Part shown: positions 12,101 through 14,043 of the stretch, piece after piece | Numbering within the stretch: the stretch's first letter is position 1 | How the letters are laid out: the number at the start of each line of letters is the position of its first letter | Source: Emiliania huxleyi CCMP1516 | Taxonomy: Eukaryota | Direction of reading: 5' to 3' | DNA length: 64,000 bases | NCBI RefSeq assembly: GCF_000372725.1 | Contig: NW_005201213.1 | Span: 62,001 to 126,000 of the forward strand | The notes under the pieces: model-generated | Seen by the model: only the letters and a program-made list of their open reading frames with translations | The model's database searches: none | Told to the model about the DNA's origin: nothing | Translations under genes and position numbers: made by a program

Positions 12101-14043
12101 GTAACAGCAGCAGCAGCAGGGTGGCGGAGGGCGGCGAGGGGGCAGGCGAGGCGGGAGGCGCACGGCTCACCTCCGCCTGCCGCCGCGCGATGGGGCTCGC
12201 GAGCGACTCCCCGGCNNNNNNNNNNNNNNNNNNNNNNNNNNNNNNNNNNNNNNNNNNNNNNNNNNNNNNNNNNNNNNNNNNNNNNNNNNNNNNNNNNNNN
12301 NNNNNNNNNNNNNNNGCGCCGCCCCCCTACGCCGCGTCCGCCGCGCCCGGCTCCCACGCGCCTTGCGAGAGGCTCGCTGCGACGGCGCGGTCGGCCGCGC
12401 CCGCCGCGAGGTGCAGCTCGAGCGCCTCTGCGAGTCTCGCGGCGAGGACCGCCCCGCTCGGCTGGCACGCTGCCGCGGCCGGGCCGGCAGTCTCGGAGAG
12501 CGAGTAGCTCCGCCCGCGCGCCCGCGCGCCGCCCGCAACCTACGGCGTGAGTCCGCCGACAGGAGGGCGTGAAGACGTGGTCCTGTGCGGCGTACTCAGA
12601 GCACCGCGTGAGCACGAGGGGGATGCGAGCACAGTGAACACTGCGGAACACTGCGGAACACTGCGGAAGACGGCTGGGCCCGCGTCCTCTCGAGTGCTAG
12701 ATATGGGGAGATACGGGGAGATATGGGGAGATATGGGGAGATATGGGGAGATATGGGGAGATACGGTGGAAGACGGCTGGGCCCGCGTCCTCTCGAGTGC
12801 TGGTGCGGGAGACATGAACATGTACTCCGCCTCTAGGCGCCTCGGCCCCTCCGTGCTGCCGGATGTGGGGAGATATGGGGGGAGATATGGGGGGAGATAT
12901 GGGGGGAGATATGGGGAGATATGGGGAGATATGGGGAGATATGACCTCGACGACTCCGTTGCGGCGCGCCGTCTTGAGAACGCCGCTCAGCGCCCCGAGC
13001 TGCACACCGCCCCGCCCCCTGCCGCCGCCCTTGCCGCCGCCCTTGCCGCCGCCCCTGCCGCCGCCCCTGCCGCCGCCCTTGCCGCCGCCGCGTGTCTCGA
13101 GCGCCACTGTCGGGCAGAGGGGCTGCGCTCGCCTAATCTCGGCTAATCTCGGCTAATCTCGGCTAATCTCGGCTAATCTCGGCTAATCTCGCGCCACTGT
13201 CGGGCAGAGGGGCCGCGCTCGCCGTGCAAGCTCGGCGGTCGAGAGCGGCGCCTCGCCATCGGCAGCAGCGCGGCGCAGAGCGATCAGCACCGCCGCGGGC
13301 GCGCCAACCTCGCCGTGCGAGTCGAGCAGCTTGGGCACCCAAGATCGCTTGGCACGCACCACCCCCGCAGCGCGACCCGCAGCGGAACCCGCGGCGCCGG
13401 CGGCAACCTCCGCGGCACCCTCCGCGGCACCCTCGCTCGTCCCTCCGGCGTCGGCGGCCGCTGGGGCTGCACCGGTGGCGGCCGGCGGCTGCTCCGCTCC
13501 CCCGCGGCCGGCTGTCTGCCGTTGGCCCCGCGCCGGCGGTGCCTCTGCGCTCGCCGCCTCGTAGCTCTCTGCGCTGCCCGGCGCGTGCGCATACTCCTTC
13601 GCGAGCTGCCTCTTCGACTTCGCGACGGCAAAGCTGAGCGCCTGCGCCTCGGTGGCGCACTGCTCCCAGCTGTCGAAGCCCTGCCGGTTGCCCGTGCCGC
13701 CACGCTTGCCCCAGCTCCGCCACGCCACCACGCCGCACACTGCGACCGCCCACCACTTTCCCTCCTCGTCGTGCTGCAGCGCCGCGACCGGCCTGAGCGG
13801 CACCTCGCGCCGCAGCTGCTCAAAGCTCATCCACTGTCCAAGCAGCGAGGACAGCTTCTCACCCACAAACTTGACCTTCAGCGCCTCCTCACGGCTCGTC
13901 ACCTCGGACGGGTGCGCAGAGAGCGAGGCGGCCGCCCGACGGAAGGTCTGAGCCTGCTGCGAGGAGTGGTCCGCGTCGGCGGCGGCCGAGTGCCACTGCC
14001 GTAGCTTGGCGACGAGCGCCTTGTTCGAAATGCTGGCTGGCAT
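9163..14043 (-). CDS. MUS81: Crossover junction endonuclease MUS81, multi-exon and interrupted by two N gaps
   Basis: N-terminal HhH (TFRRAAASL...VKFVGEKL), winged helix (RAQPLC...YSLSE), ERCC4 nuclease (VVVDSHE...LPVGDF...VVERK...DGRHYHSQKARL...YLVEG) and C-terminal HhH2. Inferred introns 13133-13222, 12540-12945 and 9775-9928, plus one ending at 10133. Confidence 0.85.
9795..9922. repeat. (ATATCTCCCC)n minisatellite arrays inside a MUS81 intron
   Basis: Two arrays separated by a copy of exon sequence. Confidence 0.95.
10140..10472 (+). repeat. Degenerate telomere-like array (TTAGGG/TCAGGG/TCAGGA), intronic
   Basis: Directly visible. It runs into N gap 10473-11240, and MUS81 exons lie on both sides. 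Confidence 0.9.
12636..12943. repeat. (GAACACTGCG)n and two (GGGGAGATAT)n arrays within MUS81 intron 12540-12945
   Basis: Directly visible 10-bp period repeats. Confidence 0.9.
13133..13190. repeat. (GGCTAATCTC)n minisatellite in a MUS81 intron
   Basis: Five full copies plus a partial copy. Confidence 0.95.

Follow-up and report, generated by a model that had tools for sequence, protein, structure and literature searches.

The 64,000-nucleotide stretch of Emiliania huxleyi CCMP1516 DNA analyzed here (the window; contig NW_005201213.1, positions 62,001 to 126,000) contains a minus-strand gene, extending from the ATG at 14043 to the stop codon at 9163, which by its sequence is MUS81, and the first exon of this gene encodes a predicted WGR-fold domain directly behind the N-terminal HhH domain. 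This HhH-WGR MUS81 is a real, conserved architecture of a known enzyme and is apparently undescribed. The literature covered on MUS81 together with the WGR domain, haptophytes, coccolithophores, algae and nuclease-WGR fusions, a scope outside which most subscription papers and all supplements lie, contains no description of a MUS81-WGR protein; the domain could already be marked in InterPro, in AlphaFold-based catalogues or in domain surveys published as supplements. Its score falls under the Pfam cut-off, which is why standard annotation missed it.

The assignment to MUS81 is evidenced by both ends of the protein. The ERCC4 domain recognized in the last exon (Table 1) is matched with an E-value of 7.7e-18 in the spliced C-terminal half, represented by database protein P0004. 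MUS81 chains account for all four matches of P0004 in PDB, with an E-value of 2e-12 against human MUS81. The catalytic motifs VGDF and ERKATSD are present, the latter aligned with ERKRLDD of human MUS81, while two acidic residues near the catalytic motif, the Asp preceding ERKxxxD and the Glu before QK, are replaced by Ser relative to the human enzyme. The alignment of P0004 with human MUS81 ends at P0004 residue 334, past the first C-terminal HhH region, for which no separate HhH profile match was obtained. At the N terminus, exon 1 carries an HHH_8 domain (aa 7-72, E 1.9e-10), and aa 3-80 of the structural model superpose on the Mus81 N-terminal HhH 2KP7 (Z 10.5, rmsd 2.6 over 74 residues). 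A conserved block starting at aa 235, preceded by an Ala/Gly linker, occupies the place expected for the winged helix. The only winged-helix profile match was HTH_27, at E 0.24 and in the ortholog, and neither WHD_MUS81 nor PDB was matched. Thus, of the original placement of the WGR-like segment between the N-terminal HhH and the winged helix, the HhH side stands, whereas the winged-helix label is without profile confirmation and is treated here as putative.

Table 1. Features of the MUS81 gene in the window.
Feature	Position	Strand	Evidence and remarks
Exon 1: N-terminal HhH, WGR-fold domain, Ala/Gly linker, putative winged-helix start	13223..14043	-	Open frame from ATG 14043; donor 13222
N-terminal HhH (aa 7-80)	13804..14025	-	HHH_8 match and 2KP7 structural match
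WGR-fold domain, predicted (aa 83-155)	13579..13797	-	Pfam WGR 20.5 bits, hhalign 94.4%, model pLDDT 94, 2RA8 Z 10.8
Ala/Gly linker, low-complexity (aa 156-234)	13342..13578	-	Ortholog identity 27/67 aligned residues, dN/dS 0.53
Intron 1, GC-AG, 90 nt	13133..13222	-	Joint in 3/4 runs
Exon 2: putative winged helix and Gly-rich insert	12946..13132	-	In frame with exon 1, collinear with ortholog P0003
Exon 3	12171..12539	-	Contig joints and intron ends; includes N gap 12216-12315 and adjacent TAG
Exon 4: linker and first ERCC4 strand	11390..11845	-	Contig pieces 11406-11844, matches P0004; 3' end approximate
ERCC4 core exon, catalytic motifs VGDF and ERKxxxD	9929..10139	-	Translation, P0004-human MUS81 alignment; 5' end approximate
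GC-AG intron	9928-9775	-	Contig joint
Last exon: remaining ERCC4 and C-terminal HhH region	9163..9774	-	Pfam profile search, ERCC4 E 2.9e-7; stop 9163

Four intron joints occur in public contigs, with GC-AG or GT-AG ends, and another intron region crosses the N gap. The in-frame TAG at 12327-12329 lies 12 nt from this gap; each of the three contigs that span it carries a single mismatch close to one end and extends into the gap. This TAG is probably an assembly error. Both GC-AG introns contain short tandem repeats, and the exon sequence at their borders is duplicated (9 and 26 letters can be assigned to either side), resembling target-site duplications. The sole intron of the ortholog locus L002 (about 5130-5335), also GC-AG, is located at the same HSQK position and likewise has short tandem repeats and a duplicated flank. 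A degenerate array of telomere-like hexamers within a MUS81 intron (10140-10472) reaches into an N gap.

Elsewhere in the window, three related genes (3774-5330, 16596-18146 and about 42100-43300) share an N-terminal motif recognized by eye; their repeats are presumably RCC1-like. Two ORFs, 33986-35437 (+) and 40142-41557 (-), start identically and lie inverted to each other around the gap 37443-37542; this pair is either an inverted duplication or an assembly artefact.

The peptide on which attention was first drawn (nt 13758-13591, minus strand) is in the frame of ATG 14043. The range first given for the domain, 13586..13780, was correctly located and proved slightly short (Table 1). Its characteristic residues are K96, W97, W98, R109-x-W111-G112-K113, D124, K142, Q146 and Y151, and it adjoins the HhH directly, the last HhH helix (62-80) continuing into the first WGR strand (84). 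The segment is retained after splicing: runs X2, X4 and X13, from three studies, each provide one ungapped contig that extends from 13215 to 13997-14068 and is joined across intron 1, and in the fourth run, X1, the segment is covered by a shorter contig piece (13494 to 13860). That these runs are RNA is a guess, and transcription is deduced from the intron-skipping contigs. Removal of the segment by splicing is rejected because it is present in these contigs. The ortholog P0003 from a second species (locus L002, 66% identical) carries HhH, the WGR segment and most of ERCC4 in a single exon, so an assembly chimera is rejected too. A recent foreign insertion is likewise rejected, as the GC3 of the segment (0.93) is similar to that of the last exon (0.95). 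For one pair, the window and its ortholog, dN/dS is 0.32 in the WGR segment, 0.18 in the HhH and 0.53 in the linker; by this sequence measure the WGR-fold domain is under purifying selection.

Assignment of the fold as WGR follows from sequence profiles, the AlphaFold2 model and structural matches. The Pfam WGR profile matched the segment with 20.5 bits (E 5e-4), which is below the cut-off of 22; it gave no match to the ortholog and was visible in only 2 of a further 31 database matches. The segment is therefore to be regarded as a divergent homolog of the WGR fold that, by the cut-off, falls outside PF05406. A bacterial WGR profile, in which 22 of 41 collected loci were aligned, scored 17.6 bits with the window segment versus 12.8 for the best shuffle, and 9.2 versus 6.9 with the ortholog (2000 shuffles each). 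With a profile of ten Bacteroidota rows only, the window segment reached 14.8 against a best shuffle of 6.0; the ortholog, at 6.0, stayed below its best shuffle of 9.5. The hhalign probability with this profile was 51%. In profile-profile comparison (hhalign) with WGR, the probability was 88% when two MUS81 rows were used and rose to 94.4% (E 9e-8) for 18 rows. PDB searches with the single sequence or the two-row profile found no WGR. The 18-row profile placed the bacterial WGR 2RA8 first, yet at E 0.064 and tied with a designed repeat protein.

The AlphaFold2 model, built from 24 MUS81 rows with no bacterial WGR among them, has a pLDDT of 94.3 and a pTM of 0.85. The modelled secondary structure (E84-91, E96-103, E106-115, E123-128, H132-148) forms an antiparallel four-stranded sheet with a long C-terminal helix. 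Residues 85-157 of the model superpose on 2RA8 with Z 10.8 and an rmsd of 1.6 A over 69 aligned residues, followed by PARP1 WGR (Z 7.9, rmsd 2.1 over 71) and PARP3 (Z 7.8, rmsd 1.9 over 73), while the best unrelated structures have Z of 6.3 or lower. AlphaFold2 on the single sequence gave a pLDDT of 44 and meaningless fold matches, and in Foldseek the good model returned a list filled by polymerase beta, with none at E 0.001 or better; the best viral row there was a phage WGR protein (E 5.8e-3). The ortholog model that the Atlas itself provides matched WGR clusters with TM 0.59-0.66 by target, under the naming threshold, and the Atlas feature search with the ortholog ranked WGR clusters on top (0.78), which serves as a lead only. 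Taken together, the profile, model and structural evidence settles the predicted WGR fold of aa 83-155. The original prediction of a WGR-like domain within MUS81 is thus supported, with both a profile and a structural match found and the segment present in spliced contigs.

The structural search also matched aa 82-152 of the model with residues 12-116 of PDB 6IMK (Z 6.3, rmsd 2.0 over 67), which is the DNA-binding domain at the N terminus of African swine fever virus ligase. A pithovirus ligase also appeared among the viral rows of Foldseek. The paper on the African swine fever virus ligase terms its fold completely novel and does not contain the word "WGR" (PMC6344480). With a middling Z, this viral domain may be WGR-like.

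A profile of HhH plus WGR, compared with 1.84 billion representatives, yielded 33 matches. The WGR segment occurs in 21 of them, according to a counting profile built from many of the same 33 rows, and is accompanied by the full HhH in 15. Ten matches have the HhH only; these are short proteins that end or become unrelated sequence before the segment and are probably gene fragments. The remaining two contain neither domain at the thresholds used. The distance from the HhH hairpin to the WG is 48-56 in all 17 proteins with both, being 51 in 12 of them. Organism names were obtained for 2 of 20 clusters looked up: MUS81 of the haptophyte Prymnesium parvum (1162 aa), the nearest named relative, and MUS81 of the pelagophyte Aureoumbra lagunensis, a label resting on one UniRef record. 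Both proteins contain HHH_8 and ERCC4, and the Aureoumbra protein matches Pfam WGR with 18.6 bits at positions 7-77. The architecture is consequently not peculiar to this genome. A chordate MUS81 cluster aligned with the ortholog query over the HhH only. An oomycete cluster, comprising a MUS81-like HHH protein of 520 aa, aligned to P0003 36-194 over 115 residues covering both domains (TM 0.52). As a lead, this cluster points to a possibly greater age of the HhH-WGR pair in stramenopiles.

Searches for the WGR segment in plasmids, phages and viral contigs gave no match, and word-index searches returned only 2, 2 and 0 proteins. The 18-row profile found nothing at E 0.001 in 301 Bacteroidota genomes, though ten of them hold a WGR; few candidates were scored, and this blank has little meaning. 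Two genome loci, and 18 matches in 16 of the 301 genomes (14 translated, one ORF read), look like chance.

In the reverse direction, with a MUS81-WGR profile, 5 of 22 bacterial WGRs, all of the short Bacteroidota types, exceeded the best of 4400 shuffles, with 16.7-26 bits. In a tree of 38 WGR domains, which contained no PARP row and left out two partial rows, the 16 MUS81 rows, including Aureoumbra, fall on one side of a branch (91/90), subject to a long-branch warning, and are located beside the short Bacteroidota WGRs with weak support (67/89). The P-K/R-L-L/T block at the putative winged-helix start is also common to the haptophyte and Aureoumbra proteins. The simplest reading is that a short bacterial-type domain was fused once and that haptophytes and at least one pelagophyte inherited the fusion. 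Dorrell et al. reported that haptophytes received genes from a pelagophyte/dictyochophyte ancestor, in all 772 families, 43 of them plastid-targeted (PMC5462543), and the MUS81-WGR gene could be among the families passed in this way. Alternatively, HhH-WGR MUS81 may have an older origin with later losses, as the oomycete row hints.

On broken DNA, PARP2 makes contacts through N127, K130, Y132, W151, R153, Q159, K179, K183 and Y201 (PMC6294510). In the alignment, PARP2 N127-N129 correspond to E93/E94/G95 of MUS81, K130 to K96, Y132 to W98, W151 to W111, G152 to G112, R153 to K113, Q159 to N119, K179 to K142 and K183 to Q146. The structural range (156 to 643) sets Y151 at PARP1 F638, assuming that the last five residues are ungapped, and F638 is the position of the 5'-phosphate tyrosine of PARP2 (PMC4081085). 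Among the rows of relatives, of which P0035 and P0044 are near-copies and two end early, conservation is K/R96 19/19, W98 19/19, W111 21/22, G112 22/22, K/R113 19/22, K/R142 18/22 and Y151 21/22, with the G of K-G-Y in 19/21. Other contacts are changed: the Asn triplet is acidic (E94 in 16/19), K183 is replaced by Q (Q146 in 17/22), and the Q159 site is variable. The full break-reading contact set of PARP2/3 is therefore incomplete, with K130, W151, R153 (as K), K179, the aromatic at 132 and probably Y201 retained, and the domain carries a net charge of just +3. Bacterial WGRs, for which ligands are only predicted, also contain the conserved W, G, K and Y, and these residues may have a structural role.

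The N-terminal HhH of human MUS81 is polymerase beta lyase-like, binds DNA, directs the choice of incision site and binds SLX4 (PMC5344696), and the winged helix shifts the cut position (PMC3834828). Together with the HhH helix running into the WGR strand and the retained contact residues, these roles suggest that HhH and WGR form a joint DNA-binding unit, which would grip a strand break beside the branch point; from the model and the PARP analogy such a unit is probable. The WGR would bind DNA via K96, W98, W111, K113, K142 and Y151, by analogy with PARP2, and would enlarge the N-terminal DNA-binding surface of MUS81, and the unit could help to set where MUS81 cuts or place the nuclease on nicked junctions. 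The arrangement of the two domains is predicted to be fixed, pTM by itself being no proof of a rigid interface. That the WGR on its own prefers nicks or 5'-phosphate ends, again by analogy, is possible at somewhat less than even chance. The DNA-break sensing originally proposed for the domain could apply by the same analogy, the PARP2 contact set being only partly conserved.

The main role of the WGR might instead be protein contact or regulation within the molecule, by packing on the HhH or nuclease or by recruiting a partner, for example replacing the contact with SLX4 through which human MUS81 is activated. The acidic loop at the DNA-contacting Asn positions of PARP2 and the low net charge fit such a role, as do the domain-domain contacts made by the motif Arg of PARP1 (PMC6294510) and the nature of the human N-terminal HhH as an SLX4-binding, self-limiting element (PMC5344696). 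However, the conserved positions are the basic and aromatic ones with which PARP2 touches DNA, and no partner was indicated by any analysis made, which leaves this role unlikely. It is improbable, to a still greater degree, that the WGR binds nucleic acid (duplex, single-stranded DNA or RNA:DNA hybrids) without reading breaks and only raises avidity. This would agree with the incomplete 5'-phosphate clamp (K183 is Q146) and with the literature on bacterial-type WGRs, which describes them only as predicted binders of nucleic acid or DNA, or as RNA binders (the latter in PMC7470946), but a Tyr is retained where the 5'-phosphate-reading PARP2/3 differ from PARP1. A neutral passenger or structural spacer is hardly credible: dN/dS is above that of the HhH and human MUS81 works without a WGR, yet surface and core residues are invariant across clusters below 50% identity and the domain is kept in two distant lineages.

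In eukaryotes, MUS81 is a core nuclease of repair and meiosis, and its N-terminal domains determine the cut site. The MUS81 WGR offers a natural test of the ligand of a bacterial-type WGR in a protein other than a PARP, and of the way in which abundant marine algae couple a nuclease to break recognition. Its occurrence in haptophyte and pelagophyte MUS81 is a shared character with which gene flow between the two lineages can be tested. A fuller reading would join these elements: a MUS81 shared by haptophytes and pelagophytes with a captured bacterial WGR, a rigid HhH-WGR clamp reading 5'-phosphorylated nicks, a PARP-like break sensor by which the enzyme both finds its substrate and is switched on without SLX4, and movement of the whole gene between lineages. 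Taken as a whole, this combination is decidedly unlikely; if its capture and transfer were true, a nuclear DNA-repair enzyme would mark the transfer proposed from pelagophytes/dictyochophytes to haptophytes.

Overall, the algal protein shares with human and Schizosaccharomyces pombe MUS81 the domain order (N-terminal HhH, winged helix, ERCC4, (HhH)2), with the winged helix and the C-terminal (HhH)2 putative here, and the catalytic core. Human MUS81, with its HhH at 10-90 and winged helix at 128-230 (PMC5344696, PMC3834828), has fewer than 40 residues where the alga has a 73-residue WGR-fold domain, so by these limits there is no room for a WGR. The WGRs of PARP1, PARP2 and PARP3 have the same fold (Z 7.4-7.9, rmsd 1.9-2.3) and share part of the DNA-contact set, whereas the MUS81 domain is without the PARP insertions (71 residues versus a span of 101), the Asn triplet, and a catalytic/helical domain to activate. 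Bacterial WGR-fused ATP-dependent DNA ligases (PMC7470946) likewise carry a WGR on a non-PARP nick-processing enzyme, but are ligases and prokaryotic. The best structural match, of the same length, is the short bacterial/phage type (PF05406; Bacteroides fragilis Q64V53, PDB 2RA8), which has in common with the MUS81 WGR a K-W-W/K-F-W start, a W/Y-G-K motif and a K-G-Y end, although the copy in the window has Glu in place of Gly in K-G-Y. Identity in the superposition is 16%, and the MUS81 domain differs by a G-x-D-x-W insert of four to six residues and by its location in a eukaryotic nuclease. The likeness to PARP and bacterial WGRs originally noted thus holds for the fold and, in part, for the DNA contacts; by sequence and model, the MUS81 WGR resembles the short bacterial WGRs more than those of PARPs.
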